64,000 bases of DNA from Ignavibacteria bacterium (GTDB taxonomy: Bacteria > Bacteroidota > Ignavibacteria > Kapaibacteriales > Kapaibacteriaceae): NCBI GenBank assembly GCA_016707005.1, contig JADJIQ010000001.1, forward strand, positions 395,846 through 459,845. Reading direction: 5' to 3'. The notes under the pieces were generated by a model. That model made no database searches, had not been told where the DNA came from, and saw nothing but the letters and a program-made list of their open reading frames with translations. This document shows, piece by piece, positions 35,060 to 64,000 of this stretch; the first letter of the stretch is position 1; each line of letters opens with the position of its first letter. The translations under genes and the position numbers were made by a program.

Positions 35060-35068
35060 CTGCGGTTC

Positions 35069-35152: not shown

Positions 35153-35173
35153 CAAGATGAAGGACTAGGTGCT

Positions 35174-41194: not shown

Positions 41195-42769
41195 ATGCCC
41201 TCCAGAACCACCGATTCAGAGCGGTTTACAGAACTCCTTTCCCGGGCCGAAGTGCACGAGGAAACGGCCATTCAGAGCCTTGCAGCAGCTGTGGCTCTGG
41301 CCAGAGATAGAATGAAGGGGGCTCAGCGCGATCGATCACTCTGGCGGACACATTGGATACGTGCTGCTCTCCGGCTTGCAGAACTACTGGAACGCAAAGA
41401 GTCGGCACGTGAAGCACTTGAGGTGTTGCAACCGCTCATCCATGAACTGGATGCCTGCGATGATGCCGACCTGGTTATGCGGACCAAACAAGAATTGGGT
41501 CGATATCTGATGATCCGGGGAGATCTCGATATTGCCATGGATCTTCTCCAACAGGCATTGCGAGATGCCGAGGTACTAAATAATACAGCTGTAGCCTCCG
41601 CTGCTTCGGGCAACATCGGCATGGTGTTCTTCAACCACGGCGAGTTCGATGACGCGCTGGTATGGTTCAATAAGACCGTTGTGTTGATGCGTCAACGCGG
41701 AGACAAGGCTCGGACCGCCCTTGCCCTGCGCAGTGTTGGAATGACGCATAGCAAGAAGAAAAGCTATTCCAAGGCATTGAAGTCCTACGCAGACGCATTG
41801 AAGGAACTCAACTCGAGTACCGAGGATAACATCGACTCGCGGATAGAAATCCAGATCCGGGAGTCCATTGGCGTTGATCAACTGAACCTTGCTGATGCAA
41901 CGCAGAAAGCCACGCACTATCAAGCGGCGATAGAGGCATTTTTAGAGTGCCTTGAGCTTGCCAGACGCAATGGGCTTGACGTTTCACGTGCGGTGGCATT
42001 ACGAAATCTCGGCCAGGTCTATGCAGAGACTGACTATGCCGAACATGACATCCACAAAGCCATCGCGTTGTTTGAAGAGGCACGGCAGATCATTGAACCA
42101 AAGTCGATCCATACACTTCACTATCAGATCAACAGAGAGCTTGCATTCGCCTATGAGGCGGTAGGAGACGCCGCCCAAGCACTTGAAGCCTACAAGCGCT
42201 ACCACTCTTCTGAAAGGGCCGTCATTGACCTCGACTCTGCCTCAAAGTTGCGCTCGATCGAAGAACGTCACCGTTTTGAACGATCGCAGGAAGAGTTGCG
42301 AAGAGAACAAGAGCGCTCACTTGAGCTCGAGGCTGAAGCCCGCAAGCGCACCGCGGAACTCTCTCACCTTACTCTAGCCATTGGTGAGACTAATGCTCGT
42401 TTGCGCGATCTCTCAAGCAGGATTCGGGTACAAGCACGTATCGCCGATCAACCAACAAAGCAACTCTTCCTAAATATCATTCAGGACATCGACGCTTCAC
42501 TCGGCACTGAGATCTTCTGGAGTGGAATCGAAGAACAACTATCCAACCTCCATGGTGAGTCGCTTCAGTACCTGTCTAAACATTTTCCTTCCCTTACCCC
42601 TACCGAACGCAAGGTCTGCGCCCTCATTCGGATAGACCTTTCCTCCAAGGAGATCGCCAGACTGCTCAATACGGAACCACGTTCAATAGAAAAGTACCGC
42701 CAACGCATCCGCAAGAAACTCGGCCTCACCGCATCCGACTCGCTGTCCACATTCATTTCGTCTTTATAG
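41195..42769 (+). CDS. TPR-repeat protein with C-terminal LuxR/GerE-type HTH (transcriptional regulator)
   Basis: Multiple TPR-like helices, a coiled-coil segment, and C-terminal LTPTERKVCALIRIDLSSKEIARLLNTEPRSIEKYRQRIRKKLGL, a LuxR-type HTH. Confidence 0.7.
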   Translation: MPSRTTDSERFTELLSRAEVHEETAIQSLAAAVALARDRMKGAQRDRSLWRTHWIRAALRLAELLERKESAREALEVLQPLIHELDACDDADLVMRTKQELGRYLMIRGDLDIAMDLLQQALRDAEVLNNTAVASAASGNIGMVFFNHGEFDDALVWFNKTVVLMRQRGDKARTALALRSVGMTHSKKKSYSKALKSYADALKELNSSTEDNIDSRIEIQIRESIGVDQLNLADATQKATHYQAAIEAFLECLELARRNGLDVSRAVALRNLGQVYAETDYAEHDIHKAIALFEEARQIIEPKSIHTLHYQINRELAFAYEAVGDAAQALEAYKRYHSSERAVIDLDSASKLRSIEERHRFERSQEELRREQERSLELEAEARKRTAELSHLTLAIGETNARLRDLSSRIRVQARIADQPTKQLFLNIIQDIDASLGTEIFWSGIEEQLSNLHGESLQYLSKHFPSLTPTERKVCALIRIDLSSKEIARLLNTEPRSIEKYRQRIRKKLGLTASDSLSTFISSL

Positions 42770-42843
42770 TCATACCGTCATACCGTCATACCGTCATTTA
42801 GTCAGTTAGTCACTTAGTCATTTCTTTGTCCGGCTTTTGTCCG
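42770..42843. repeat. tandem arrays (CGTCATAC)x3, (TYAGTCA)x3, (CTTTTGTCCGG)x2
   Basis: TCATACCGTCATACCGTCATACCGTCAtttaGTCAgttaGTCActtaGTCAtttCTTTGTCCGGCTTTTGTCCGG, directly after the regulator stop and upstream of the RHS gene. Confidence 0.8.
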
Positions 42844-48831: not shown

Positions 48832-48872
48832 TGACAAATGACTGATGACGAATGACCAATGACTGATGACAC
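48832..48872. repeat. tandem (NNATGAC)x5 array
   Basis: caaATGACtgATGACgaATGACcaATGACtgATGACacg in the divergent mtase/alaS intergenic region. Confidence 0.7.
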
Positions 48873-51660: not shown

Positions 51661-52038
51661 ATGGCAAACTCATTCGAAGCAGTCGGCACGATGCACGTCG
51701 TGATGGACACGCAGCAGGTGAAGGACACCTTCAAGAAGCGTGAATTTGTGATCGAGATGCAGGATGGCAATTATCCGCAGCACATCAAGTTTCAGGTGAC
51801 GCAGGATCGTTGTGCCTTGCTCGACAACTTCAAGGTTGGTCAGCAAGTAAAGGTCCTCTTCAACTTGCGGGGTCGCCCCTTCCAAAACCGTGAAGGCCAG
51901 ACCGTCTACTTCACAAACCTCGAAGCATGGCGCATTGAGCCTGCAACAGGCACAGCCACACCTACAGGTGCAGATTACAGTCAGATCACGCCGGCAAGCG
52001 CTGGTGCGAAGGATGACTTTGATGATGTTCCGTTTTAA
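51661..52038 (+). CDS. DUF3127 domain protein
   Basis: MHVVMDTQQVKDTFKKREFVIEMQDGNYPQHIKFQV...GQTVYFTNLEAWRIE matches the DUF3127 pattern common in Bacteroidota. Confidence 0.55.
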   Translation: MANSFEAVGTMHVVMDTQQVKDTFKKREFVIEMQDGNYPQHIKFQVTQDRCALLDNFKVGQQVKVLFNLRGRPFQNREGQTVYFTNLEAWRIEPATGTATPTGADYSQITPASAGAKDDFDDVPF

Positions 52039-52133
52039 GGCTTTTTAAGCGGCTTCTTAAAGCGCCTTTGTAAGCGCCTTTGTAAGCGCCTTTGTAAGCG
52101 ATTTCTACAAGCGCCTTCTACAAGCGTCTTCTC
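52039..52133. repeat. tandem ~12-nt array (GCGCCTTTGTAA x3 with degenerate flanking units)
   Basis: GGCTTTTTAAGCGGCTTCTTAAA-GCGCCTTTGTAA x3 -GCGATTTCTACAAGCGCCTTCTACAAGCGTCTTCTC, immediately after the DUF3127 stop. Confidence 0.85.
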
Positions 52134-52202
52134 GATAGGGATACATTTGACTACATTGTATTACATTGTATTCAGTTGTAGTCATTTTTCCAAGGAATCA
52201 TC

Positions 52203-52475
52203 ATGCCATCAACGAGCGTCCGTCTTGATTCTGATCTTGATGCAAAATTGGCTCTTCTTGCGAGCGAGTTGGATCGAAGCAAGAGCTGGATCATTATTCA
52301 GGCACTTCGCGAGTATCTGGGCCACGCTGCGGCCGAAAGACATCGATGGGAGCAAACGCGCGAAGCTTTGGAATCCGTTTCTAAGGGTCGAGTGGTGCCA
52401 GCTGAAGATGTACACACATGGCTTCGAAGTGGCGCTAGTGATTCAGGGACGCTCTTGCCTCGAGATTCCAGGTGA
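52203..52475 (+). CDS. ribbon-helix-helix (CopG/ParD-like) antitoxin
   Basis: N-terminal RHH SVRLDSDLDAKLALLASELDRSKSWIIIQALREYL. Overlaps the downstream toxin by 4 nt. Confidence 0.7.
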   Translation: MPSTSVRLDSDLDAKLALLASELDRSKSWIIIQALREYLGHAAAERHRWEQTREALESVSKGRVVPAEDVHTWLRSGASDSGTLLPRDSR

Positions 52476-52765
52476 AGTGCGTCTACACCCACGAGGCGGT
52501 CGTTGATTTAGAGCGTATCCGGATATTTCTCATCGAGCACTATTCCGAGAGTTACAGCAGTATCATCGAAGAATTGATCGAGCGAGTTGCGAAGCTCGAG
52601 GAATTTCCACGACTAGGGTCCCGACTTGTTTCATCACCTATAGCGTTAGAGTTACGAGAGATCGTCATTGGCTCATACGTTGTTCGATATCTCATACTCG
52701 ATCAAACTGTAAGTATTCTTCGAGTATGGTATGGTAAGGAAGATCGATCGGGTATTGAGAGTTAA
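52472..52765 (+). CDS. ParE/RelE-family type II toxin
   Basis: YTHEAVVDLERI...ELREIVIGSYVVRYLILDQTVSILRVWYGKEDR is the ParE fold signature. GTG start overlapping the antitoxin stop (GTGA). Confidence 0.7.
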   Translation: MKCVYTHEAVVDLERIRIFLIEHYSESYSSIIEELIERVAKLEEFPRLGSRLVSSPIALELREIVIGSYVVRYLILDQTVSILRVWYGKEDRSGIES

Positions 52766-53223
52766 CACAGAACTCGATTGAGTTCAGTCTGAAACTGGCT
52801 CGGGTCTTGCGTGTCTGCCGGACCAACCACATATCGTTCCCAGAACGTTGAGCCGAACTCATAGCTCGCTTCATCAACCGCTGTCATGAATTCTTGCCAG
52901 GCATCGCCAAGACCTTCATATGGTCCATGGTAGATGGTTCGAACAACGCGGCAGGCAGGGAGTTTGCTTACCTTGACACGTCCGGTCTCTTGTAAAGCGC
53001 CATCAATGGGCACGCCGATCTCAAAGTCAAACGTATCCGTTGGCATACGATGATGATATGAGAAGAGGGGGCCTGTTGGTCCGATCCCCTGAGCACCTAA
53101 TGTTGAATACAGTTCAACGATAGCAGGATCCATTTCTTCCTGCATTTCCGTTCTTGGGATAACAAGATGGATGGACGCTGTGACTTGTTCATCCATGGTT
53201 GCAAGCGTTGGAGTTGTATTCAT
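52762..53223 (-). CDS. GyrI-like (AraC effector-binding-like) small-molecule-binding protein
   Basis: Duplicated beta-alpha-beta-beta halves (HLVIPRTEMQE...FDFEIGVP; ...RTIYHGPYEGLGDAWQEF), typical of the GyrI-like domain. Confidence 0.55.
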   Translation of the reverse strand: MNTTPTLATMDEQVTASIHLVIPRTEMQEEMDPAIVELYSTLGAQGIGPTGPLFSYHHRMPTDTFDFEIGVPIDGALQETGRVKVSKLPACRVVRTIYHGPYEGLGDAWQEFMTAVDEASYEFGSTFWERYVVGPADTQDPSQFQTELNRVLC

Positions 53224-53243
53224 GTTGTTGTTATTATCGTGAG

Positions 53244-53603
53244 ATGGAAACCAAAACTACTACCATTGACCAGTACCTCAAAACGGTTGACGCAGATAAG
53301 CGGCGTGTTCTTGAGGACATACGTTCATCCATCCGCGCTCTCGTACCTGATGCAGTTGAGTGCATCAACTACGGTGTTCCAACCTTTAAACTCAACGGCA
53401 AGAACCTCATCCATTTTGCAGCAGCAAAGAACCATTGCTCGCTTTTTCCAGGTCCCGGCGCAATAGCGGCTTTCTCTGAGGAACTTACTGCCTTTGCTAC
53501 GAGTAAAGGAACCATTCGATTTACGGTGGAGAGCCCCTTACCGAAGAGTTTGGTGAGGAAGATCGTAAAACACCTTGTCGAAAAGACGTCATCCCGAGCG
53601 TAG
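53244..53603 (+). CDS. DUF1801 domain protein
   Basis: IDQYLKTVDADKRRVLEDIRSSIRALVPDAVECINYGVPTFKLNGKNLIHFAAAKNHCSLFPG matches DUF1801. Internal ATG start at 53244. Confidence 0.6.
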   Translation: METKTTTIDQYLKTVDADKRRVLEDIRSSIRALVPDAVECINYGVPTFKLNGKNLIHFAAAKNHCSLFPGPGAIAAFSEELTAFATSKGTIRFTVESPLPKSLVRKIVKHLVEKTSSRA

Positions 53604-53638
53604 TCGAGGGATATGACATTATGACGTTATGACATTTT
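53587..53638. repeat. conserved 25-nt motif CGTCATCCCGAGCGTAGTCGAGGGA followed by (TTATGAC)x3
   Basis: One of three near-identical copies of the 25-mer; the others are at 59268 and 62657. Overlaps the last 5 codons of the DUF1801 gene. Confidence 0.85.
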
Positions 53639-53670
53639 TGAATCGTACATCATTCGGTTACGGAGTATAC

Positions 53671-54060
53671 ATGTCGAACATCGTTGAAATGGCTGCCGGT
53701 ACCTTTACACTACTTTCCGTTCTTACCATTGGCTTTCAGATCGCGCTTGGCCTAGGTGCTCCGTGGGGGAGATTCACACTTGGGGGAAAATATCCTGATG
53801 TCCTTCCAATGAAGGCACGGTTGATTCCCGTTTTCTCAACAGTGGTCCTTGCGTTCTTTATTGCGATCGTCCTTACCCGTGCTGGACTCATACGTCCGGA
53901 CCTTCTAGAACCGTCTCGTATTGCTATCTGGTTGCCCGTTACCTACATGGCGCTTGGACTCGGTTTGAATTCCGTCTCCAAGAGCAAGCCCGAGAGAAGA
54001 CTGTGGGTACCGGTGATCTTGGTGATGCTTGTGTGTACGTTGATCGTGGCTCTTGTTTGA
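53671..54060 (+). CDS. hypothetical 4-TM membrane protein
   Basis: Four hydrophobic helices. No recognised domain. Start uncertain (53629 or 53671). Confidence 0.4.
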   Translation: MSNIVEMAAGTFTLLSVLTIGFQIALGLGAPWGRFTLGGKYPDVLPMKARLIPVFSTVVLAFFIAIVLTRAGLIRPDLLEPSRIAIWLPVTYMALGLGLNSVSKSKPERRLWVPVILVMLVCTLIVALV

Positions 54061-54066
54061 GTGGCC

Positions 54067-55908
54067 TCACAATCGCTCCAACCAGTAGGTTGTCATCATA
54101 CCCTTACCCTTGACCTCTATAGTTCCGCGCTCCGTAACCCCGAAACCCTGCAGCTCTTCTGCAAACGCTTGGCTGATGTGAATACGTCCGGGTTCGCTGT
54201 GTTGCTCCATGCGTGCTGCAATATTGACAGCGTCACCCCAGATGTCGTACATGGGTCGCGTAGCGCCGATAACGCCGGCAACTACGGTGCCGATGTGCAT
54301 ACCAATGCGCACGCGAACTCCATAGGTTCCATCGGTTATTGCCTTCATCATGTCCATAGCACAATGGGCTGCTCGATGCGCAGGTTGTGATACCATGTCT
54401 GGCAAATTGGCCACAGCCATGTAGGCATCGCCGATGGTTTTGATCCGAACGAGGCCGTGATGTTCGATGATCGTATCGAATTGCGTGAAGATTCGCTCGA
54501 TGAAGTCCAACACTTCCTTGGGTTCCATGTTTTCCGAGATCGTGGTAAAGCCAACGAGGTCGGCAAAGAGAATCGCGACGTCAGTGTGGACATCTGCAAT
54601 GCGGCGTTCGCCGGAGAGAATTCTTTCTGCAACCGTACCAGGCATCACTGAATGAAGAAGATCTCGCTCGCGTTGAGCGGTGCGACGTTCTTCTTCTCGC
54701 TCACGTTCTACTGTGAACAGTGCTAGTCGTTGTTGAGCTGTCGTATTCGTGACCGATGTCTCCAATTGAGTGCGCTCGAGCAAGCACTGGTAAGCACGGC
54801 TGGACGCTTGCGTGGCGGCATAGGCAACGTGGAGTTCTGCCAGCGAACGAAGCAGAGCCGACACATCTGCGCGTTGACGTGCCGCATCAGCAATTGGCTC
54901 TAGAATGTCGATCGCTTTCTGGTGATCACCTTCGCACATCAACAACCGAGCCTCTTCGATGACATGAGTTATCCGCTGCGGTTCGTTTGAAGCCATAGCA
55001 AGAGCATCTTCTGCTCTCTGAAGCCACAACCGTGCCTGTTCGATGTTACCCAACACCCGATGTGCTGCGGACAGCCCACGTCGTGCGCCGGTTGCCATTG
55101 ACCATTTGCTCTTGTCTGTGCTCAAGCGTTCAGCTACCAGCAGTTCGTGAATGGCCTGCGTCGCATCGTTGTCCTCAAGGTGCAATAGGCCAATGTTCAG
55201 CGCAGCATACGTAGCAAATCTCTCTGCATCGGCGCCGGTGTCGATCGTGCGTACCTGTTCGAAGTATGTGCGTGCCTTCTCGCGATTACCCGTTTCGCCA
55301 TACAGCACACCAAGATTTAACATGGCGATCGCTAGCGCTATAGGATTATCCAACGTCGTGAACGTTTCATAGGCCCTGAACTGCATGCGTACCGCATCGG
55401 CTAGGAGCCCCTTTCGACTATAGATCGTAGCTAACTCGGTAAGGGCATTGCCCAAGGCTGCAGGGTAGGGAAGTGCGCCAAGAAGAGCAACGGCGTGTTC
55501 ACCGTGTGTTTGGGCATCGTCATATCGACCTTGTTGCGTTGCGCAGAGTGCCAGTGTGCGAAGTGCGCGTGCCTGATAGCCAACATCCGTCATGGTATCT
55601 ACATCGAGGTCTTGCATCAAATCGAGTGCCTCGTCTACCTCCGTGGATTCCGCCAAGAACTGCGTCCAACCCGTCACCATTCGGTAGTGTAGATCGTACG
55701 GTCTTTTGGAAGGGGGCAGTGCAGTGAACGAAGCAAACGCTGACCGTGCACCTTGCAGATTCCGTTGAGAACACTGCAGTTCCAAATTGAGCCATAGTTG
55801 CAACCACCATGGCTCAGGGTCGGCGGGCATTTCCGCTACCAGTCTATCCAGCATAGGCTTGCGGATACCGAGGATAGCATCGTCGATCTGTTGGAGCATA
55901 GTTGACAT
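54067..55908 (-). CDS. TPR-repeat class III adenylate/guanylate cyclase
   Basis: N-terminal ~400 aa of TPR-like repeats. C-terminal CYCc domain (VAILFADLVGFTTISE...IKTIGDAYMAV...GIHIGTVVAGVIG...YDIWGDAVNIAARME). Confidence 0.8.
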   Translation of the reverse strand: MSTMLQQIDDAILGIRKPMLDRLVAEMPADPEPWWLQLWLNLELQCSQRNLQGARSAFASFTALPPSKRPYDLHYRMVTGWTQFLAESTEVDEALDLMQDLDVDTMTDVGYQARALRTLALCATQQGRYDDAQTHGEHAVALLGALPYPAALGNALTELATIYSRKGLLADAVRMQFRAYETFTTLDNPIALAIAMLNLGVLYGETGNREKARTYFEQVRTIDTGADAERFATYAALNIGLLHLEDNDATQAIHELLVAERLSTDKSKWSMATGARRGLSAAHRVLGNIEQARLWLQRAEDALAMASNEPQRITHVIEEARLLMCEGDHQKAIDILEPIADAARQRADVSALLRSLAELHVAYAATQASSRAYQCLLERTQLETSVTNTTAQQRLALFTVEREREEERRTAQRERDLLHSVMPGTVAERILSGERRIADVHTDVAILFADLVGFTTISENMEPKEVLDFIERIFTQFDTIIEHHGLVRIKTIGDAYMAVANLPDMVSQPAHRAAHCAMDMMKAITDGTYGVRVRIGMHIGTVVAGVIGATRPMYDIWGDAVNIAARMEQHSEPGRIHISQAFAEELQGFGVTERGTIEVKGKGMMTTYWLERL

Positions 55909-55963
55909 GGTGCGAATGTACGCAGGAGGAAGTCATGAGGTCGTTTCGTAATTAGCATGTACA

Positions 55964-56920
55964 ATGAGATCAAGACTTCTTCTGCTCACGTTGCTTTTGT
56001 GCCCGAACCTTCAAGCACAGGACAATTCAACAACTACGTCCGCTATCCATCAACTCGTAGGCAGATGGAGTGTGACCGTTGACGGTCAGGAAGCGTCGAT
56101 CATGAATGCTCAGGTCGAAGCCTGGCGATCTATGCCTGATGGGTCGCTGGTTGGCTGGAGTGGGACATCTCATGGTACGGGCATTCACAAGAGCGAAGAT
56201 CTCGCGCTCTCAAAACGTTCGGGCACGTGGACCTATGAGGCTAGGGTTGTTAAACAGAACAACGGCAAGGCCGTGGCGTTTGCTTGTACGAAGATGACAA
56301 AGGACATCATCGTCTTTGAGAATCCGATGCATGACTTCCGGCAGAAGATCGAGTATCAGTTCAGATCGCGCAATGAGATCGTTGTGACGGTCAGTGGCTC
56401 GGCGCGGAAGTTTGTTCTCAGGTTCCGGCGTATTCCCGAGGGAGTCATCTCCTACTCGCCCCTGCAACTCGACACCTCGGCGACGAACACCCCTAAGATC
56501 CCGTCACCGACACAACCCACAGCTCGAATCAAGGGACTGATCGGTAGCTGGGAAAGCAGTGATCACAACAAGACTATGAAGATCGCCGAGGTAGGTCCTG
56601 GGCGATATGCAGGGACGATCATGACCCTTGCATCAGATCTGAAAACATTGATCGAGTTCAAGATCGAAGTCTTCAAAAGGAAGAACCAATGGATGTTGTC
56701 CTTGCAGCGCCCGGTTTGGAACAACAGTGAGCAAATGATGTATCGTTTGATCCACAGCTCGATCAAAACACTCATCTTTCAGAACCATTGTGGTGAGTCA
56801 CCAAATCAGCTGCATTTTGAGTTCGCTGACAAGGACTCCATACTCCTTTCGTGTGACGATGTTGTTGGCATGGAAGGCGAATCAAGCGGTCGCGTGATCG
56901 ATCTCAAACGAAGTCACTGA
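55964..56920 (+). CDS. hypothetical secreted protein
   Basis: Signal peptide MRSRLLLLTLLLCPNLQAQ. Two internally similar halves. No recognised domain. Confidence 0.4.
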   Translation: MRSRLLLLTLLLCPNLQAQDNSTTTSAIHQLVGRWSVTVDGQEASIMNAQVEAWRSMPDGSLVGWSGTSHGTGIHKSEDLALSKRSGTWTYEARVVKQNNGKAVAFACTKMTKDIIVFENPMHDFRQKIEYQFRSRNEIVVTVSGSARKFVLRFRRIPEGVISYSPLQLDTSATNTPKIPSPTQPTARIKGLIGSWESSDHNKTMKIAEVGPGRYAGTIMTLASDLKTLIEFKIEVFKRKNQWMLSLQRPVWNNSEQMMYRLIHSSIKTLIFQNHCGESPNQLHFEFADKDSILLSCDDVVGMEGESSGRVIDLKRSH

Positions 56921-56931
56921 ACAACCTTCAT

Positions 56932-57336
56932 ATGCCGCACAAACCATTCACGATCAAGAGCCTGAGTTTTGTTTCGCTCTACATGCGAGACATTGAAGCT
57001 GCCGTGGCATTTTATACCTCAGTGTTCGGTCCGCACGAGTACACAGAAGAGAATGAGATCCTCTACGGTTGGAGAATGGGATCCACGTGGTTGACGATGT
57101 TCCCAAGCACCGCCGGAACCGCCACAGATCGTAATCCGTGTAATACGGAGTTTGCCATTGAAGTGTCGTCTCCAGCTGAGGTTGATGTGCTCTACGCTGC
57201 TCTTGTCTCAGCAGGGGCAACTATAGGAATGACTCCTCGAGATACAACCATGTATGTGCCGATGCGATTCTGCTGTGTTGACGATCCCTTTGGCGTCAGG
57301 ATCGATGTCTATTGTCCGCTTGGAACAGACCTATGA
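56932..57336 (+). CDS. VOC (glyoxalase/bleomycin-resistance) family protein
   Basis: Paired beta-alpha-beta-beta-beta modules (FVSLYMRDIEAAVAFYTSVFG; FAIEVSSPAEVDVLYAALVSAGA). Confidence 0.5.
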   Translation: MPHKPFTIKSLSFVSLYMRDIEAAVAFYTSVFGPHEYTEENEILYGWRMGSTWLTMFPSTAGTATDRNPCNTEFAIEVSSPAEVDVLYAALVSAGATIGMTPRDTTMYVPMRFCCVDDPFGVRIDVYCPLGTDL

Positions 57337-57716
57337 CTGAACAAACCGATGTTGAAGAATATCTCCGCACGTTTGAGCACCCTAACAAGGAAGTTCTGTT
57401 GCGCGTGCGTGAGATCATACTCGGCGTTGATCCCAAGATTCAAGAAGGCATCAAGTGGAAGGTGCCCAGCTTCCGCACCACCGAATTCTTCGCAACGTTT
57501 CATGTCAGGTCGAAGAAGGGTATGGGGCTTGTCCTTCATTTTGGTGCGAAGAAACGCCAAGATCTGCCCGAACGGTCAACGATCTCAGATCCCACGAACC
57601 TGCTCGAGTGGCTATCTGATGACCGGGCGATGATCACATTTGGATCGATCCAAGAGGTTGACAAGAGCGAGCATGAGTTCGCAAACATCATACGTCAGTG
57701 GAGTAAACTTGTCTGA
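57333..57716 (+). CDS. DUF1801 domain protein (second copy)
   Basis: EYLRTFEHPNKEVLLRVREIILGVDPKIQEGIKWKVPSFRTTEFFATFHVRSKKGMGLVLHFG. ATG overlaps the VOC stop (ATGA). Confidence 0.5.
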   Translation: MTEQTDVEEYLRTFEHPNKEVLLRVREIILGVDPKIQEGIKWKVPSFRTTEFFATFHVRSKKGMGLVLHFGAKKRQDLPERSTISDPTNLLEWLSDDRAMITFGSIQEVDKSEHEFANIIRQWSKLV

Positions 57717-57866
57717 TTCGCTCAGTACGCTCGAGCGAAAGCTGTAGGTGCCGGTGATCGCGATCATGCTAGCATGTTCATTAGTTGTAGCGCTTGAAGT
57801 GTCTTTTCTCAACTATTTTGAGAGAGGCTAAATGAGCAATTCACGAATGATAATCGGGGGGCTACT

Positions 57867-58229
57867 ATGGAAACAGATCCTACAGTTCATGACAGAGATT
57901 CAGAAGAGGCCTTTGCCTATGCCATAGAACAGATGCATGGCGGAATTCCACTTTTTAAGATCGAGGAGCAGCTAGTTCAACGCGGATTGAGCGAGGAATC
58001 TGCTTCGGCCGTCATCGCACGAGTTTCGGACTACCGTACATCCTCTGAAGCAAAGGAAGCTCGCAGCAGCATGAATCAAGGTGCCGTCTGGTTCTTAGGC
58101 GGGATTGTCGTTACCGTAGCAACCTATGTGCTTGCAACCGGAGGTGGAACCTATGTTGTTGCATGGGGTGCCGTCGTTTTCGGTGGAATCCAATTCGTAC
58201 GTGGCTACATGAAACTGCAGAACTATTGA
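57867..58229 (+). CDS. hypothetical small membrane protein (2 TM)
   Basis: Soluble N-terminal ~70 aa, then two Gly-rich TM helices. Confidence 0.35.
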   Translation: METDPTVHDRDSEEAFAYAIEQMHGGIPLFKIEEQLVQRGLSEESASAVIARVSDYRTSSEAKEARSSMNQGAVWFLGGIVVTVATYVLATGGGTYVVAWGAVVFGGIQFVRGYMKLQNY

Positions 58230-58251
58230 GAAGATGTGATCGGTGTTCTTT

Positions 58252-58611
58252 CTATGCCCGTGAGCCAGACCTCTTACTCGAAGCAGGGGATCTTTTACCC
58301 ACGACCGTTGCAACGATGGCCTTCTCCGGCATGTCGAGGGCTATAAGAACACGGATCAAGAGGTCGAAAGACACGGACGGATCGCCGGCTTCGAGTTTCG
58401 CGATCCTAGATTGGCTTGTACCGACTCGTTCTGCAAGCTCCGTTTGTGTGAGATGACACTTTTTCCGTCGGGTATACACTTCCATTACAAGAGAAGCCTT
58501 GATGTTGACATACTTTTCCTCACTTGGTGTGAGGGTAAGGAACTCAGCAACAGAGCCCACTCTAAACCCCGCAGACTCTAGTCGTCTTTTTCGAACATCA
58601 TTCATGATCAA
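58252..58611 (-). CDS. HTH XRE-family antitoxin (HigA-like)
   Basis: HTH LTQTELAERVGTSQSRIAKLEAGDPSVSFDLLIRVLIAL. Overlaps the upstream toxin gene by 4 nt. Confidence 0.65.
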   Translation of the reverse strand: MIMNDVRKRRLESAGFRVGSVAEFLTLTPSEEKYVNIKASLVMEVYTRRKKCHLTQTELAERVGTSQSRIAKLEAGDPSVSFDLLIRVLIALDMPEKAIVATVVGKRSPASSKRSGSRA

Positions 58612-58946
58612 TCCTCCTGTAGGTCATACCATCGAAAACTTGCGATGCATGTTTTGATAACTGACGTAGGAAGTGTTTCTGTCTTCTTCTTGAACACATC
58701 GACGACAAGTATGACTTCCGTATCGATTCTGTAGATGATTCTCCATGTCACATTTCCGTCATTGATTCGTAGCTCATGGCAGTTTCGACCGATCATCGGT
58801 AAAGGCCGCGAAAATGGCATTGAGATCAAGCCACCTAGCTGCAGAACCCGCAAGAGTAAGCCTGTCTTTTTCCTTGCCTCCGCCGAAAACGGTGGAGTTC
58901 TTACTGAACCATGAATCCAAACGATGACCTTTTCTTTGAAGTACAT
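58608..58946 (-). CDS. RelE/ParE-superfamily toxin, Gp49/HigB-like
   Basis: ...IHGSVRTPPFSAEARKKTGLLLRVLQLGG..LSMPFSRPLPMIGRNCHELRI.DGNVTWRIIYRIDTEVILVVDVFKKKTETLP matches the phage Gp49-like (HigB) family. Toxin-first gene order. Confidence 0.65.
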   Translation of the reverse strand: MYFKEKVIVWIHGSVRTPPFSAEARKKTGLLLRVLQLGGLISMPFSRPLPMIGRNCHELRINDGNVTWRIIYRIDTEVILVVDVFKKKTETLPTSVIKTCIASFRWYDLQED

Positions 58947-59127
58947 GCTCGCCTCACAAAATATGTCAAAAGTGACATATCGTCAAAACGTGATGATTGT
59001 ATTCTCCAGTAAGTGTCTTCATCGTCGAAGAACGTGACGAATGTCATTGAGACTCTCCTGATGGATAGATAGGTTTGAGAATCGGTCATAGAGGTCGACC
59101 TACGACCTCACTGAAACAGAGGCACCT

Positions 59128-59199
59128 ATGCTAAGGGTCATACTCATCATCTTTGTCGCAGCTGCTCTCATCATCGGCATCGCCTTTGTTTGGGGCTAG
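59128..59199 (+). pseudogene. 23-codon remnant of a paralog of the 61759 gene (N-terminal TM helix only)
   Basis: MLRVILIIFVAAALIIGIAFVWG* against MLKIIISIVVVAALIIGIVYAWGYY... at 61759, with 21 identical nt (AGCTGCTCTCATCATCGGCAT). Followed by the same heptamer array plus 25-nt motif that follows the full-length gene. Confidence 0.55.
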
Positions 59200-59202
59200 A
59201 TG

Positions 59203-59292
59203 AACAGCGAACACAGAACAGCGAACAGCGAACAGCGAACACAGAACAGCGAACACAGAACAGCGAACGTCATCCCGAGCGAAGTCGAGGGA
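59203..59292. repeat. tandem heptamer array (GAACAGC/GAACACA)x9 plus 25-nt motif CGTCATCCCGAGCGAAGTCGAGGGA
   Basis: GAACAGCGAACACAGAACAGCGAACAGCGAACAGCGAACACAGAACAGCGAACACAGAACAGCGAA then the conserved 25-mer at 59268-59292. Confidence 0.9.
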
Positions 59293-59435
59293 CAACGAGA
59301 GAGGGCGTAGAGACGAAGGGATAATGGGGCTGGAGACGCAACGCCATCTATGTTCGCCAACCTCGGGCAGAACATTCCATATATTCGAATTGATACTTTG
59401 AATAACTGATACATACATCCCTCCGGCAGGTCGAC

Positions 59436-59918
59436 ATGAAACGTGTTGTTGTTTCTATTGTGCTCCTTGCCTTCGCACTGCTTCTACCTTCTCGCATGTT
59501 GGCACAGTGGGTGTCAGTAGACGGACCATACGTAGACGCTGGTGGTGTCTTTGCGCAAGTTGGTTCGAATCTTTTCGTAGCTACAGAAAATTATGTTTTC
59601 CGCTCCACGAACAATGGTGATAGCTGGACACCCGTTAATAACGGTCTGCCAGAAGATGGGATTTATTCACTTTTAGGTGTTGGGACAAAACTTTATGCAG
59701 GCGCGGATGCTAGTTCGGGTTCACTCTATGTTTCCTCCGATAGTGGAGCAAGTTGGAAGATGTTAGATATGATGTATTTCAAAAGCGGAATCAAGCAACC
59801 TGTTGGGGACGTCATGTCTTTGGCTTCGCTGGGTGAAAATCTGTTCGTTGGTACATCATATGGCCTAGTGTTACGCTCGGATAACGAAGGCGACAGCTGG
59901 ACCTTGGTAAAAAGGTAA
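59436..59918 (+). CDS. BNR/Asp-box repeat beta-propeller protein, N-terminal part (signal peptide + first repeats)
   Basis: Signal peptide MKRVVVSIVLLAFALLLPSRMLAQ. SxDxGxSW motifs (STNNGDSWT, SSDSGASWK, SDNEGDSWT). Ends at a TAA created by an A5 run. Confidence 0.7.
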   Translation: MKRVVVSIVLLAFALLLPSRMLAQWVSVDGPYVDAGGVFAQVGSNLFVATENYVFRSTNNGDSWTPVNNGLPEDGIYSLLGVGTKLYAGADASSGSLYVSSDSGASWKMLDMMYFKSGIKQPVGDVMSLASLGENLFVGTSYGLVLRSDNEGDSWTLVKR

Positions 59919-59919
59919 T

Positions 59920-61590
59920 ATGTCATACTCCGTAACTCTTATGGCGCATGAGTCTACTCTCTATGCCGGTACTCATCGTGTTTGCTCATCAACAAATCAG
60001 GGGAATGATTGGACAGATAGTGGAAGTCTCCTCTCAAGAACTAGAGTTGTATCCTTTGCGAAAATTGCAACGCATCTGTTTGCGGCAACAAATGGGGTGG
60101 GGGTGATACATTCGCCCGACGATGGCATTACATGGGATACGGTAGACAATGGCTTACCTGATACTACAGTCAACACTCTCCTCGCAAGTGGTAATGCTCT
60201 GTTTGCGGGTACACGGTCAAGGGGAGTGTATGTCTCTTCAAACTATGGGGCGAGCTGGAGTCCTTCCAATAATGGTTTGACAGACACCACAGTTGCGTCG
60301 TTGATCGAGCATGGCAAGTATCTTTTTGCCTCAACGCCTAACCAGGGAATCCTCCGCTCATCTGATCAAGGTGCTTCATGGACAGAAGCCAATATTGGAT
60401 TTTCAGGCACATCTTTAGTTCGCTCCATACTGAGCAGGGGAGAATATCTTTTTGCTGGAACCGACAAGGGGGGTGCATACCGACATAATGGGGTGAATTG
60501 GCGTTCAACAAAGGTTGGTCTTCAAACTGAGTATGCCAGCTCTTTGGCGGTTCAAGACTCAGTCTTGTTTGTTGGAGTCTTTCGCGTGCAGGCTGCGAAT
60601 CAACGAGGTGGCGTATTCCGTTCCTCCGACGATGGTGATTCGTGGCGTCCATACAACACTGGCCCTAGCAGTGATGTTTGGAGCCTAGCCGTCAACGATG
60701 CAAATGTGTTCGCCGGAACGCAGATTGGTGTGTATCGTTCCACTGATTATGGAGATAATTGGAACGCTGCCAATGGCCCAATTAAAGGCGGAATGGGGAT
60801 AGAAATGAGATATCAGTACATCTTATCTCTCGCTTCTATAGGGACAACGATATTTGCGGGGGGAAATAGAGATGTCTTTGTATCTACAAACTACGGATCG
60901 ACTTGGAGTTTTGTGAGATTCAATGTACCCACGGACAGAATTAGGTCTCTGGCTGCTATTGGAACAAATATGTTTGCTACAACCGTTAACGGGGGAGTGT
61001 TTCGTATCTCAGGAAGCGGTGATACCTACACCGCGGAATCGGCTGGTCTATCTGGGAAGACCGTAAACTCTCTTGCAGTTAGTGGCACGAATCTCTTTGC
61101 AGGAACGGTTGATGGGGGAGTCTTTCTGACAACTGACATGGGTAAAACGTGGACGTCTATTAATGATGGCCTCCCTTATTCGTCGGTTACTGCATTAGCA
61201 ATACATAAAGGAAATCTATATGCGGGTGCAGCATCAATCGTCGAGTTCTGGCATGGCGCGGGTGTCTTTGTTCGCCCCCTTTCTGAGATTGTAACAACGG
61301 TAAATGAAACATCCGCAAGCGAGTTGACTCCATTGCTTCAATCTCAGAACTTTCCGAATCCCTTCACTAATGTGACAGACATTGAATTCACGTTGAGAGA
61401 ATCTGCACACGTTACCATTACGATCTACAATGCACTCGGTGCAATTGTGCAGACAATAGCGTCCAAGGAATTTCCGGCAGGTCACAACACTGCAACATGG
61501 GATGCATCCTCCCATGAAGTCGGTCTGTATTTCTATCGCATAATTGTTGGGTCGCAAAGTGAGACCAAGAGTCTCTTGATCATGCGTTAG
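59920..61590 (+). CDS. BNR/Asp-box repeat beta-propeller protein, C-terminal part with T9SS sorting domain
   Basis: At least 10 further SxDxGxxW repeats. C-terminal CTD FPNPFTNVTDIEFTL...GLYFYRIIVGSQSETKSLLIMR. Continuous with the 59436 ORF if one A is removed from the A5 run at 59909-59913. Confidence 0.75.
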   Translation: MSYSVTLMAHESTLYAGTHRVCSSTNQGNDWTDSGSLLSRTRVVSFAKIATHLFAATNGVGVIHSPDDGITWDTVDNGLPDTTVNTLLASGNALFAGTRSRGVYVSSNYGASWSPSNNGLTDTTVASLIEHGKYLFASTPNQGILRSSDQGASWTEANIGFSGTSLVRSILSRGEYLFAGTDKGGAYRHNGVNWRSTKVGLQTEYASSLAVQDSVLFVGVFRVQAANQRGGVFRSSDDGDSWRPYNTGPSSDVWSLAVNDANVFAGTQIGVYRSTDYGDNWNAANGPIKGGMGIEMRYQYILSLASIGTTIFAGGNRDVFVSTNYGSTWSFVRFNVPTDRIRSLAAIGTNMFATTVNGGVFRISGSGDTYTAESAGLSGKTVNSLAVSGTNLFAGTVDGGVFLTTDMGKTWTSINDGLPYSSVTALAIHKGNLYAGAASIVEFWHGAGVFVRPLSEIVTTVNETSASELTPLLQSQNFPNPFTNVTDIEFTLRESAHVTITIYNALGAIVQTIASKEFPAGHNTATWDASSHEVGLYFYRIIVGSQSETKSLLIMR

Positions 61591-61758
61591 CGGGTGGCCT
61601 CCACGGTTATTCCACTCGTACCTACCTCTCCACTTCGTGTCGTGGTTCCTTTAAAACGTGACAGATGTCATGGGCTATTGCTCCGGGTCGACGTAGATTT
61701 CACCACCAGTTGAACGTGATGAGTCATCACACCCGTGCGTGTTTATGCAGGAGGAGCT

Positions 61759-62589
61759 ATGCTGAAGATCATAATCTCAATTGTCGTTGTAGCTGCTCTC
61801 ATCATCGGCATTGTCTACGCATGGGGATACTATCGATGGGCAACGCGTACAGAATCGTTGCGCTCAAAGCTCTATGGAACAATGCAGAGCCCCATTCCCG
61901 CAACGTATGACCCACACGAGCTTGACAGTCTTCCGTCATGTGTGCAGCGATACCTGCGTTTGGTGCTTGTGCCTGGTCAGCCCATCATACGCGAGGTCTA
62001 CCTCGAGCATGAGGGAGAGATGGACATGTCGCAAGACAAGTGGGTACCATTCACCTCAAAGCAATACATCTCCACACGTGAGCCCGGTTTTATCTGGGAC
62101 GCGCGCATTGCTATGTTCCCCGGCATCAAGGCACACGTCCACGATGCCTTTGTAGATGGCAAGGGGCTCCTTCACGCCTCAGTGATCGGACTCATCACCA
62201 TGATGGAACAATCCGGCAGTGCCTTCGACTACGGCGAGTATCTACGGTGGTGTGCGGAGTCCGCGTGGTACCCAACCGCCATGTTGCCGAGTCAGGGGGC
62301 GTCATGGCAGCCCCTTACCGACACCTCTGCCCGTGTGACCTTCAAAAACGGATCGTTAACTGCCACCCTCACCGTCACATTCAGTCCAGACGGACTCATG
62401 AGTACCATCCGAGCCGAAGACCGCGGCAGGGAAGTGAACAGTCAGACCATCCCCACCCCCTGGGAAGGCCGATGGAGTAACTACATCCGCATGAACGGCA
62501 TGCTTGTGCCGGGTACCGGTGAAGTAGCGTGGATTCTGGAGGAGGGAAGGAAGGTGTATTGGAAAGGCCGAATAGCGAATAGCGAATAG
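61759..62589 (+). CDS. hypothetical N-terminally membrane-anchored protein
   Basis: N-terminal TM helix MLKIIISIVVVAALIIGIVYAWGYY, ~250-aa soluble domain of unknown function. Last 6 codons (RIANSE*) are encoded by the AGCGAAT array. Start at the internal ATG at 61759. Confidence 0.5.
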   Translation: MLKIIISIVVVAALIIGIVYAWGYYRWATRTESLRSKLYGTMQSPIPATYDPHELDSLPSCVQRYLRLVLVPGQPIIREVYLEHEGEMDMSQDKWVPFTSKQYISTREPGFIWDARIAMFPGIKAHVHDAFVDGKGLLHASVIGLITMMEQSGSAFDYGEYLRWCAESAWYPTAMLPSQGASWQPLTDTSARVTFKNGSLTATLTVTFSPDGLMSTIRAEDRGREVNSQTIPTPWEGRWSNYIRMNGMLVPGTGEVAWILEEGRKVYWKGRIANSE

Positions 62590-62681
62590 CGAATAGCGAA
62601 CAGCGAACAGCGAACAGCGAACAGAGAACAGCGAACAGCGAACAGCGAACAGAGAACGTCATCCCGAGCGGAGTCGAGCGA
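62568..62681. repeat. tandem arrays (AGCGAAT)x4 then (AGCGAAC/AGAGAAC)x9 plus 25-nt motif CGTCATCCCGAGCGGAGTCGAGCGA
   Basis: gccgaatAGCGAATAGCGAATAGCGAATAGCGAACAGCGAACAGCGAACAGCGAACAGAGAACAGCGAACAGCGAACAGCGAACAGAGAA then the 25-mer at 62657-62681. Uses the same words as the arrays at 38546 and 59203. Confidence 0.9.
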
Positions 62682-62780
62682 TTGTTTTCGTCTAGAGATA
62701 CAAGGTCCTTCTGGATGGAACGCACTAAAGCAATCCTTCTGATCCAACAATAACTGAACCTTCCCATTGTACTTGGCCCC

Positions 62781-64000
62781 CTATACCGCCTTCACCCCAA
62801 TGTCACGGAGATACTTATATGTGCCATCATAGAACGCGGGCTTGCGGGTAATGTCTTGCTCGGAGCCGTGGGGGACGCAGATTACCATGCCCTGGCGGGC
62901 GCGGGTGAGGAGGACGCGGTAGGCATTTAATTGGTAGGCTTGACGATCGGGGTGCTTGACGTTTGTCCACCGGTCGCCTCGGAATGAAAACTGCTGCCAA
63001 ACATTGCGAGTATTTGCGTGACGGAAGTCTGCATCCCATGCAATACATGTCCAGTCAAGCTCTAATCCCTGCACATCAAACTCTGTTGCAACAGTCTCAA
63101 GAAAATATGAGGAACGTACATCTTGCTTGGCGTTCAAGAACCAATGTACGGGGTTGATCTTTGACGTTACATCTATCGCATAGGGACGGAGCCGCTGCGC
63201 AGCACTCGATGCGAGTATCCCATACCGCTCACTACCACGAGCACGTTCTTTCACCCACTGCTTGGCAGCAGCAACATCGCGTGTTACGACTATGGGGAAG
63301 CTCTTCTGTATTTGAGCAAGTAGCGTCGATGCCTCGGTGTCGAAACGAAGAAGCGCATTTACAAAGCCGGACACAGACTCGGAACGAAACGACCGCACGG
63401 ATGCAGACAGATGGAGCGCAGGCATGTGTGTAAACACGCCGCGCTGAGTAAGATCTTCAAGGGGCTCGTGTGTTCCACTCTCACTCAATGCGAGATGCGA
63501 TGACGCATACACCTTCCAGTTATGGAAGCGAGATCTACACGCCTCAAGCCACGCCGCAATGCCGGCCTCCCCACGGTTGATCTCTTGTCCATTGCCAACC
63601 AGACAAACTATCACTGCCCACTCGTGGTGACGGTCCATGCAGGAAATGAGAAACTCGGGCTCGGAATGATCAAAGTCTTTTACGCCCTTCTTGCTCGACA
63701 TAAACCGCTTCGTCATCTCCCTGTTCCACGCACGCTGCGCTTCGTCGAACACCACGATCTGTTCTGCAGGAGGCTCCTCGGAATGCACTCCTTCGTCACG
63801 GAAGTGGTGAACATTTTGAATAAAGGACTTAACGCTATGCTCAGCCGACTTCTTTGTCTTCCTCTCACCTCGTTCCTTAGCCTGCCGAACAGCATCACGC
63901 GTCAGCGCCTCGCGTAAAACGGCTACGAGTGGGGCATTACCGGAGAGATACACGCAGTGTTGCTTTGTTTCTTTGTCGATGGAAGTTGTTGCAAGATCGA
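62781..64000 (-). CDS. DUF2075-like (Schlafen-related) P-loop NTPase, C-terminal portion; gene continues beyond window edge
   Basis: Walker B IVVFDEAQRAWN, downstream LAYRVLLTRARQGMVICV motif. The reading frame stays open from 63953 to the window end (...IDKETKQHCVYLSG...). Confidence 0.55.
   Translation of the reverse strand, partial: DLATTSIDKETKQHCVYLSGNAPLVAVLREALTRDAVRQAKERGERKTKKSAEHSVKSFIQNVHHFRDEGVHSEEPPAEQIVVFDEAQRAWNREMTKRFMSSKKGVKDFDHSEPEFLISCMDRHHEWAVIVCLVGNGQEINRGEAGIAAWLEACRSRFHNWKVYASSHLALSESGTHEPLEDLTQRGVFTHMPALHLSASVRSFRSESVSGFVNALLRFDTEASTLLAQIQKSFPIVVTRDVAAAKQWVKERARGSERYGILASSAAQRLRPYAIDVTSKINPVHWFLNAKQDVRSSYFLETVATEFDVQGLELDWTCIAWDADFRHANTRNVWQQFSFRGDRWTNVKHPDRQAYQLNAYRVLLTRARQGMVICVPHGSEQDITRKPAFYDGTYKYLRDIGVKAV

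Follow-up and report, generated by a model that had tools for sequence, protein, structure and literature searches.

Solo hairpin repeats of the probable SRM type, the target type of Ssn nucleases, in an accessory region of an Ignavibacteria genome

The 25-nt motif CGTCATCCCGAGCGNAGTCGAGGGA, which occurs three times in the 64-kb stretch of Ignavibacteria DNA analysed here (the window), very likely represents solo arms of the Ssn-related motif (SRM), that is, hairpins of the type targeted by Ssn nucleases, which would mark the boundaries of gene modules and serve as cut sites, recombination sites, or both. As judged from sequence, the motif also fits the superfamily of CGTC-tagged REPs. The element class has already been described and the window motif is a further example of it, not a new element. 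Membership in the family, the fold, and, for other genomes, the association with a gene are shown by the present analysis. The motif is very probably a protein recognition site, as suggested in the initial annotation, and inverted copies of it bracket GIY-YIG genes in other genomes.

The three copies that had been reported are present at 53587-53611 (copy 1), 59268-59292 (copy 2), and 62657-62681 (copy 3), all on the + strand, and CGTCATCCCGAGCGNAGTCGAGGGA had no match in 100 dinucleotide-preserving shuffles. The central N is T in copy 1, A in copy 2, and G in copy 3, and copy 3 has an extra G to C change at 62679; the three 25-mers differ at these two positions only. No fourth copy was found within the 64 kb with up to 7 mismatches; the window has 3 copies, two of which are paralogues. 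The tag CGTCAT is present in 3/3 copies and agrees with the SRM tag, HGTCWY, located directly before the palindrome. Copy 1 is followed by a T at 53612 that closes the stem, copy 2 is followed by CAACGAG where TC is usual, and in copy 3 the change at 62679 disrupts stem pair 7-22. The host is an Ignavibacteria MAG and the copies lie in a lower-GC, strain-variable accessory region. GC skew was too weak for assigning the replication strand.

The copies all point in the sense direction of neighboring + strand genes, and two lie at the 3' ends of genes. As had been noted, copy 1 reaches into the end of a DUF1801 gene (53199-53603, + strand; Pfam match E=2e-14; start at about 53245 in sister assemblies). 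It contributes the 3' end of this gene: the final five codons, together with the TAG stop at 53601-53603, are inside the motif, and the variable T is the first base of this stop codon. Copy 3 is preceded by a DUF6920/DUF6544 gene (61759-62589, + strand) whose stop codon is within the first unit of the array that adjoins this copy. Copy 2 is in a divergent promoter region and is preceded by the remnant of a DUF6920 paralogue (59129-59199, + strand), consisting of its first 23 codons, MLRVILIIFVAAALIIGIAFVWG, and cut off where the copy-2 array starts. This remnant matches the beginning of the intact L219 gene at 100% identity and shares about 72% identity with 61751-61830. The paralogous stretches upstream of copies 2 and 3, 59119-59199 and 61751-61830, are only about 72% identical. 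We infer that copies 2 and 3 are paralogous modules, each made of a DUF6920 gene, an array, and an SRM, that arose by one segmental duplication and not by two insertions. Homology to L219 ends at 62673/62674, within the loop of copy 3, and the other L219 breakpoint, 59198/59199, is the start of the copy-2 array; between the copy-2 3' flank and the L219 flank, homology beyond about 15 nt was not significant. The earlier idea of a recombination site gains from this, because the motif coincides with breakpoints between strains. Copy 1 shows no difference in a strain that has 97.7% identity in the surrounding region. For annotation, SRM repeats lead to false ORF ends and to small ORFs, as seen in the SSRA* tail of the DUF1801 protein and in peptides like VIPSEVEG.

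The motif is an imperfect hairpin: the GTCAT tag is followed by a stem of 5 bp (ATCCC/GGGAT), an internal loop of tandem G·A mismatches, and a 2-bp stem that closes a G-N-A triloop. The inner stem consists of one G:C pair, one C:G pair, and a single bulged T, and the variable N, in the middle of the triloop, is unconstrained. The statement that the motif is not a palindrome was therefore wrong in substance: it is an imperfect inverted repeat, ATCCC...GGGAT, whose pairing is backed by covariation. There were 30 double-side-change cells compared to 5.4 in shuffles, and 0 of 500 shuffles scored as high; controls with a slid register gave much lower scores. Compensatory changes were found at 4 of the 7 pairs, in agreement with the hairpin expected of an SRM, namely, 6-23 (CG 49, UA 11, GC 6), 7-22 (CG 60, UA 6), 8-21 (CG 69, UA 4), and 11-18 (GC 73, CG 3). 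Covariation at symmetric positions would be expected as well from a palindrome in dsDNA that is bound by a dimer. The number of stem pairs in the window is 5 for copy 1 and 4 for copy 2, and one pair is broken in copy 3. With the nearest-neighbour model the solo hairpin as ssDNA gave -1.4 to -3.7 kcal/mol, which is not better than shuffles. Tandem G·A pairs and GNA triloops are probably scored too low by this model and, therefore, covariation was used in place of folding energy. The inverted doublet in L007 forms a long hairpin of -44 kcal/mol (z = -15).

The location of the copies raises the question whether they act in RNA as a 3'-UTR stabiliser, a terminator, or a small RNA, co-transcribed with the upstream genes. 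Their uniform sense orientation and the two positions at gene 3' ends would fit such a role, and classical REPs can function in 3' UTRs. We consider this improbable because the copies lack a T-run, they fold no more stably than shuffles, copy 2 is in a divergent promoter region, SsnA of Neisseria does not bind RNA (PMC11893778), and an RNA role would leave the inverted bracketing of nuclease genes unexplained. The covariance search proposed earlier also gave no family at the motif: at Rfam gathering thresholds the window yielded tRNAs only, and the 18 doublet-bearing loci had no match at the motif. Together with the fold and the characterised Ssn enzyme, this speaks against the suggestion that the motif is the stem of a small RNA.

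The earlier idea that the motif is the conserved core shared by a dispersed family of repeats was supported by a scan of a genome collection: at least 120 genome stretches, which represent about 16 phyla, contain the exact 21-base core. The subclass with the G·A loop and the GNA triloop is present in Acidobacteriota, Verrucomicrobiota, Bacteroidota, Ignavibacteria, and many others. In 142 listed copies elsewhere, conservation has an abrupt 5' edge at GTCAT, and the base before it is T in 97 and C in 30. Many copies elsewhere have their reverse complement 15-50 nt downstream and thus form inverted head-to-head doublets. Copies were inside long stop-free frames in 49% of cases compared to 86% for random positions, a measure of extragenic preference that is blurred by spurious frames at high GC; the depletion is real. 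The window has 4 other GTCAT-tagged hairpins compared to 2.7 expected, with no extra classes, and a search of full-text literature for the literal motif and close variants gave only an unrelated primer match.

The gene associated with the motif elsewhere codes for a GIY-YIG protein. Such ORFs lie between inverted motif arms in L052, L060, L083 (two genes), and L050, and L026 has in addition a frameshifted GIY-YIG gene. The bracketed proteins match PF01541 with E values of 1e-13 to 7e-19 and their nearest solved structures are the UPF0213 proteins 1ZG2/1YWL. In a reciprocal test with 80 metagenomic relatives of these proteins, a GTCAT-tagged hairpin was found upstream on the gene strand in 30/80, downstream on the opposite strand in 29/80, and on both sides in 17/80, with at least one correctly oriented hairpin at 42/80 loci; chance expectation is about 1.4 per side by an analytic estimate. 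In L127 the gene has the exact window motif on both sides, and L129 comes close to this. When GIY-YIG relatives were searched with a profile, at least 7,931 clusters were obtained, with Acidobacteriota dominating. Inverted copies that bracket a single-domain GIY-YIG gene, as expected of SRMs, are thus seen elsewhere but not in the window, where tblastn with GIY-YIG proteins found no such gene in the 64 kb.

The closest known system is that of Ssn and SRM, exemplified by the NTS–ssnA–NTS layout of Neisseria with the NTS sequence CGTCATTCCCGCGMAVGCGGGAATCYRG (Chenal et al. 2025, PMC11893778). The Ssn enzyme binds only ssDNA, cleaves upstream of the NTS, and does not bind RNA, and the C right after the palindrome is the most critical base for binding by Neisseria SsnA; this biochemistry is known for the Neisseria and Wolbachia enzymes only, and the effect on transformation is from Neisseria (PMC11893778). 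Like SRM/NTS, the motif has a (C)GTCAT tag directly before a hairpin with AT at the start of its stem and usually ATC behind the stem, occurs in oriented, mostly extragenic copies in many phyla, and is found inverted around a single-domain GIY-YIG gene of about 90-115 aa. It differs in its stem, which contains a tandem G·A loop and ends in a GNA triloop, and the copies in the window are single arms that do not have the 3' C or an ssn gene in the 64 kb. If the assignment holds, an SRM as ssDNA would form a short hairpin behind the unpaired (C)GTC tag, and Ssn-family GIY-YIG nucleases would bind such hairpins as ssDNA only and nick a few nt 5' of the tag. The ssn gene would typically lie between inverted motif copies, and the far more numerous gene-less inverted doublets and solo arms would be non-autonomous derivatives. 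The window copies may then be ssDNA cut sites, joints between different gene modules, or both.

The published degenerate SRM pattern, HGTCWYN(0-2)YYVSBRHN(0-5)WNVSBRGN(0-2)RNCYNB, matched 0/3 window copies and 0/142 listed copies, and it matched the NTS control. It fails on the motif because of the tandem G·A loop and the GNA triloop in the stem. In a metagenome sample, only 4 of 50 distinct hairpins flanking Ssn genes matched the core of this pattern. Thus, the most likely explanation is that the pattern is too narrow and not that the motif is foreign, and it was treated in this way after the gene-association and covariation tests.

CGTC-tagged REPs, which include dRS3 of Neisseria and RPE-4/RPE-6 of Rickettsia, were reported in 5 phyla with no associated enzyme (Di Nocera et al. 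2013, PMC3733652). These CGTC/TGTC-tagged repeats have stems that start with AT, are mostly head-to-head dimers, and have no known transposase (PMC3733652). The motif shares with them the unpaired CGTC or TGTC tag, the A-T, T-A start of the stem, and a location downstream of genes with occasional overlap with gene ends. Head-to-head dimers are present in many genomes with these REPs; those of the motif are common elsewhere and absent from the window. By description, CGTC-tagged REPs have stems of 8-9 bp, loops of 4-5 nt, and a CCA-like tail, whereas the motif has 5 Watson-Crick, 2 G·A, and 2 further pairs, a 3-nt loop, and no CCA tail. Classical REPs or REPINs mobilised by RAYT, an IS200/IS605-type Y1 transposase (Bertels & Rainey 2011, PMC3116915), are similar in that a single nuclease- or transposase-like gene is flanked by repeats, non-autonomous doublets with long hairpins are many (the L007 doublet resembles a REPIN), solo arms are remnants, and an unpaired 5' tag beside a hairpin is also typical of RAYT/TnpA substrates. 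That the motif is such an element is extremely improbable: the tag is (C/T)GTC and not GTAG, the enzyme is GIY-YIG and not HUH/Y1, REPINs are lineage-specific whereas the motif is sequence-identical across phyla, and no RAYT flanked by CGTC repeats was reported by Di Nocera et al. (PMC3733652). Within 1.5 kb of the 142 listed copies there was no recurrent transposase-like cluster, and the recurrent neighbor was GIY-YIG. Membership in the REP/REPIN-RAYT group was therefore rejected.

Counted against SRM arms as the best explanation are the lack of a GIY-YIG gene in the window, the lack of the 3' C, the mismatch to the published pattern, and the damaged stem of copy 3. The low folding energy of the solo hairpin, the presence of only three copies in 64 kb, two of them paralogues, and the dimer-bound palindrome as another source of covariation count against it as well. 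The missing GIY-YIG gene, the missing 3' C, and the damage to copy 3, together with the solo state of all three copies, the lower-GC, strain-variable location, and the other tagged hairpins in the window, which are not above chance, would also fit inactive relics, that is, SRM arms brought in by horizontally acquired modules or left by an extinct expansion, with neither a cognate nuclease nor a present function. This is a less likely but serious alternative. The base after the palindrome is A, A, and T in the window copies, whereas it is C in roughly 85% of the 142 listed copies (from their listed 5-mers). However, copies elsewhere in Flavobacteriia and Ignavibacteria commonly lack the 3' C and end at GGGA, and hence the missing ATC looks typical of the lineage and not like decay. 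The 25-mers differ only at N and one base in spite of the divergence of the paralogous stretches upstream, and copy 1 is unchanged between strains, which also argues against relics.

Each window copy adjoins an array of short words. The initial annotation placed arrays directly before copies 2 and 3, and this holds: (GAACAGC/GAACACA)x9.6 at about 59202-59267 (+ strand) ends ...GAAC directly 5' of copy 2, and a x12.7 array, (CGAATAG)x4 (CGAACAG/AGAACAG)x8, at about 62569-62656 (+ strand) ends ...AGAAC directly 5' of copy 3, so that GAAC is right before GTCAT in both. The array after copy 1, given as (TTATGAC)x3, has a period of 8 and not 7; it is (TATGACAT)x3.1 at 53612-53636 (+ strand), or (AAYGTCAT)x3 on the - strand. 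Thus, copies 2 and 3 have their array on the tag side, whereas that of copy 1 is on the 3' side and its words carry the tag on the opposite strand. No length polymorphism was seen among three assemblies 99.7-99.95% identical to the window. The proposal that the arrays are variable arms of the motif, in one composite mobile or functional unit, is quite improbable. It is true that 3/3 window copies adjoin an array without a gap and that there are cases in other phyla (L059, L093, L095, L100, L107, L108), but copies 2 and 3 are one event duplicated, no arrays accompany the motif around GIY-YIG genes, about 10/13 array blocks in the window are without the motif, and about 95% of the listed copies elsewhere are without an array. 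An array beside the SRM, on its tag side, was found in 6/142 listed copies by TRF and 4/140 by autocorrelation compared to about 1% background, a weak enrichment. The word arrays are a separate genome-wide feature and not arms of the element.

The array words in the window belong to families with GTCAT, GTAAC, and GAAYAGC cores, and some blocks are in inverted pairs. As intergenic runs of 7-8-nt words they resemble the TAACTGA heptamer arrays of some Bacteroidetes, Cyanobacteria, and Beggiatoaceae, for which a mechanism was not proposed (MacGregor 2015, PMC4679880), and TAACTGA itself is in the window array at 13249-13278; that paper draws no link to tagged hairpin repeats or GIY-YIG nucleases. 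Such arrays could be by-products of SRM/Ssn activity through nicking and slipped or template-switch repair, which we regard as rather doubtful. Repeated nicks in ssDNA a few nt 5' of the GTC tag would duplicate the cut-site region in tandem, arrays would grow on the tag side, and orphan arrays of GTCAT words would be left once the hairpin is lost. Only two of 100 arrays elsewhere had GTCAT words and both are just 5' of SRMs (directly in L093, within about 70 nt in L025); in L059, L107, and L108, the 5' part of the SRM is duplicated in tandem. Most arrays have cores other than GTCAT, which limits this reading. If true, it would account mechanistically for the heptamer arrays in Bacteroidota, Cyanobacteria, and Beggiatoaceae, which are so far unexplained.

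At the strength given above, a puzzling 25-mer that is identical across phyla is identified as a hairpin of the type that the recently described Ssn nucleases target in ssDNA. Its G·A/GNA subclass is very widespread and is missed by the published pattern, and therefore the abundance and range of Ssn/SRM are probably underestimated. The strain comparison also provides a concrete case outside Neisseria in which such hairpins are exactly at the junctions of swapped gene modules, and this fits the idea that SRMs shape recombination.

The pattern CGTCATCCCGAGCGNAGTCGAGGGA, with its variable central N, was found in the window at 53587-53611, 59268-59292 and 62657-62681 with 0, 0, and 1 mismatches, respectively, always on the + strand, and it had no match in 100 shuffled sequences. 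These are the three copies that the initial annotation had reported, and no further copy was found in the 64 kb even at 7 mismatches or by a half-motif search. The reported overlap of copy 1 with the 3' end of a DUF1801 gene is also real, as copy 1 supplies the final five codons of this ORF and the T at its variable position opens the TAG stop codon. It had further been claimed that each copy adjoins an array of short tandem words. Tandem Repeats Finder detected all three arrays, namely, (GAACAGC/GAACACA) x9.6 at 59202-59268 beside copy 2, (CGAATAG/CGAACAG) x12.7 at 62569-62657 beside copy 3, and (TATGACAT) x3.1 at 53612-53636 beside copy 1, the last with a period of 8 and not 7 as had been thought.

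The motif is not a local repeat. The exact 21-mer GTCATCCCGAGCGNAGTCGAG occurs in at least 120 stretches of the representative-genome collection and, among the matches listed (80 loci), in Acidobacteriota, Verrucomicrobiota and Kiritimatiellia, Alphaproteobacteria including Rickettsiales, Bacillota, Chloroflexota, Dormibacterota and Eremiobacterota, Bacteroidota and Ignavibacteriaceae, Planctomycetota, Bdellovibrionota, Gemmatimonadota, Desulfobacterota, Patescibacteria, Marinimicrobia, and Armatimonadota. In viral contigs it is rare (14 stretches). From other genomes, 142 copies were recovered (145 with the window copies). In these 142 copies conservation sets in abruptly at GTCAT, the motif is usually continued by GGGATC or GGGACC, and the central N is A in 64, C in 47, G in 16, and T in 15. 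Many are followed 15-50 nt downstream by their own reverse complement and so form long hairpins; the doublet at one such locus, L007, folds with -44 kcal/mol (z = -15). The window copies are solo arms.

One proposed fold was tested on 78 distinct variants from the same loci. Its stem is made of pairs 4-25, 5-24, 6-23, 7-22, and 8-21, followed by the unpaired G9·A20 and A10·G19, pair 11-18, and a closing pair 12-16 with position 17 bulged around the loop G13-N14-A15. Changes on both sides of a pair were seen in 30 cells compared to 5.4 in shuffles, none of 500 shuffles scoring as high, and the covariation score was 0.207 compared to 0.098 in shuffles; slid registers all scored far below the proposed fold. 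The pair types seen were CG, UA, and GC at 6-23, CG and UA at 7-22 and at 8-21, and GC and CG at 11-18, while the G·A and A·G positions are near-invariant. N alone is free because it is the middle base of the triloop. Pair 7-22 is lost in copy 3, where 62679 has changed from G to C. The stability of the solo hairpin is not significant by the nearest-neighbour model and, therefore, the argument for the fold rests on covariation. Such symmetric covariation would also fit the binding of a dimer to a double-stranded DNA palindrome; the published biochemistry speaks for a single-stranded DNA hairpin.

When the ORFs lying up to 1.5 kb from the 142 copies were clustered all against all, a single small recurrent family emerged, that of single-domain GIY-YIG proteins (PF01541) of about 90-115 aa, for which the closest solved structures are UPF0213 proteins (1ZG2 and 1YWL). 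In loci L052, L060, L083 (two genes), and L050 from other genomes the GIY-YIG gene is preceded at about 50-110 nt by an arm on the + strand and followed by one on the - strand, and in L026 a frameshifted GIY-YIG copy adjoins the motif. Reciprocally, among 80 metagenomic relatives of these proteins, a GTCAT-tagged hairpin was present upstream on the gene strand in 30, downstream on the opposite strand in 29, and on both sides in 17, where an analytic estimate of chance gives about 1.4 per side. The exact window motif stands on both sides of the GIY-YIG gene in L127, and L129 is the same except for one changed base in the downstream arm. The 64 kb of the window hold no GIY-YIG gene.

A motif with inverted arms around a GIY-YIG gene is the architecture of the system described by Chenal et al. 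2025 (PMC11893778). In Neisseria, ssnA, which codes for a 94-aa GIY-YIG protein (CDD cd10448), is bracketed by the NTS, CGTCATTCCCGCGMAVGCGGGAATCYRG, a refined form of the dRS3 repeat, and by Ssn-related motifs (SRMs), and SsnA reduces the integration of NTS-bearing transforming DNA in N. meningitidis (PMC11893778). The window motif also fits the superfamily of CGTC-tagged REPs, which have an unpaired CGTC or TGTC tag and stems starting with AT, occur mainly as head-to-head dimers, and for which no transposase was found (Di Nocera et al. 2013, PMC3733652). No copy among the 145 fits the published degenerate SRM pattern; in a metagenome sample, the pattern recovers just 4 of 50 distinct Ssn-flanking hairpins, and it fails mainly because of the G·A internal loop. 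This subclass was therefore probably under-counted in the census of Chenal et al. (PMC11893778). We found no other papers on the Ssn/SRM system in the literature. We assign the element to the SRM/CGTC-tagged REP hairpins of the Ssn nuclease system, in a widespread subclass missed by the published pattern. The earlier suggestion of a protein recognition and recombination site is broadly right, and that of a small RNA is not supported. The C after the palindrome, which mattered most for binding by Neisseria SsnA (PMC11893778), is absent from all three window copies. Since copies elsewhere in Flavobacteriia and Ignavibacteriaceae also stop at GGGA, we regard this as a feature of the lineage, but the window copies could also be inactive.

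Other arrangements of SRMs were observed. GIY-YIG genes in L133, L144, L159, L160, and L170 are bracketed by hetero-pairs with compensatory differences between their stems, such as GTCATTCC...GGAATC upstream and GTCATGTC...GACATC downstream, which recall the 'heterodimers' noted for CGTC REPs. Direct, closely spaced clusters, mostly in Acidobacteriota (L001 1663-1810, L118, L119, L111, and L026), bear conserved lineage-specific 3' extensions, one of which, GGATCTGCTGTGCGCCTTTCTCCTGCCACAAATTTCTAC...CCAGCATCGG, recurs in L075, L109, L111, and L119, a sign that longer composite elements may exist in this phylum.

About 13 blocks of 7-8-nt words lie between genes in the window; each word consists of a constant 5-nt core (GTCAT/ATGAC, GTAAC/GTTAC, GAAYAGC, and others) with 2-3 variable bases, and only 3 blocks contact an SRM. 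Arrays of this kind are common in other SRM-bearing loci, where they often form inverted pairs, and TAACTGA-type arrays have been described without a mechanism (MacGregor 2015, PMC4679880). Elsewhere, a tandem array lies on the tag side of 4-6 of about 140 copies and on the other side of 1-3, compared to about 1% at random positions. Tag-side arrays are thus too scarce for the arrays to be part of the element, and their proposed role as its arms is not supported. The array runs right up to the tag at copies 2 and 3, on the side where Ssn cuts (PMC11893778), and at copy 1 it lies on the 3' side with words that carry the tag on the opposite strand. Elsewhere, only 2 of 100 arrays are GTCAT-word arrays, both just 5' of SRMs (directly in L093, within about 70 nt in L025), and tandem duplications of the SRM 5' part with a period of 15-21 nt end in a complete SRM in L059 (171-246), L107 (7906-7979), and L108 (6713-6800). 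These findings are suggestive, and the arrays may have arisen by slipped repair at the Ssn cut site, an explanation that we consider improbable. GTCAT/ATGAC words occur in 5 of the 16 array rows of the window, compared to 2 of 100 in loci of other genomes, and such arrays also stand without an adjacent SRM hairpin at 13189-13278, 42765-42823, and 48832-48870. An inverted pair at 10893-10977, (AGTTACnn)x5 then (nnGTAACT)x4, could form a long imperfect hairpin, and similar pairs are found in L052 (4389/4442), L062, L070, L071 (7445/7506), and L108 (7740/7847). At 34973-35214 two adjacent tRNA genes are directly followed by a (TAGTTAC/TGGTTAC) array.

The host is an Ignavibacteria MAG, as a 99%-identical protein bears that name and a T9SS sorting domain is present. 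Three assemblies match the window at 99.7-99.95% identity across about 20 kb and show no change in the SRMs or the arrays. Compared to these assemblies the window has a one-base insertion at 59909, either a sequencing error or a pseudogene, by which a 717-aa BNR/Sortilin protein carrying a T9SS sorting domain is divided between ORFs 59436-59918 and 59920-61590. In the divergent strain L219 (GCA_016703055.1), copy 1 and its array are unchanged, and homology is lost at 59198/59199, where the copy-2 array starts, and again at 62673/62674, in the loop of copy 3, beyond which L219 has Vsr and Dcm genes where the window has a Schlafen-like helicase. The L219 SRM (15710-15775, reverse complement) has the 5' half, N=G, and the array composition in common with copy 3; it then has 21 extra loop bases (CCTGTCCTGCCGAAGGGAGGA) and continues with TCGAGGGACAAGGAG, resembling copy 2 (14 of 15 bases). 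Variants with a long loop are also found on the flanks of GIY-YIG genes in L124, L126, L171, and L174. Of a DUF6920 paralogue, 23 codons are left in the window upstream of the copy-2 array; they are identical to the beginning of the intact L219 gene and share about 72% identity with the beginning of the window DUF6920 gene. It follows that copies 2 and 3 are paralogous 'DUF6920-array-SRM' modules and not independent fusions.

The region 52000-64000, with a GC content of 0.50 compared to 0.53, carries two toxin-antitoxin pairs, a TPR-adenylate cyclase, a Schlafen-like AAA helicase, and two DUF1801 genes. Just upstream of its RelB/ParE pair (52203-52765), 52041-52186 holds a 12-13-nt tandem repeat (CTTTGTAAGCGC-like, about 7 copies) followed by TACATTGTAT repeats. 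In the Gp49 (HigB-like) and HTH antitoxin pair at 58252-58946, the Gp49 gene of L219 lacks an internal stretch of 255 bp (58635-58889). Strain-variable and rich in accessory genes, the region looks like an accessory island, and SRMs coincide with the junctions of swapped gene modules.
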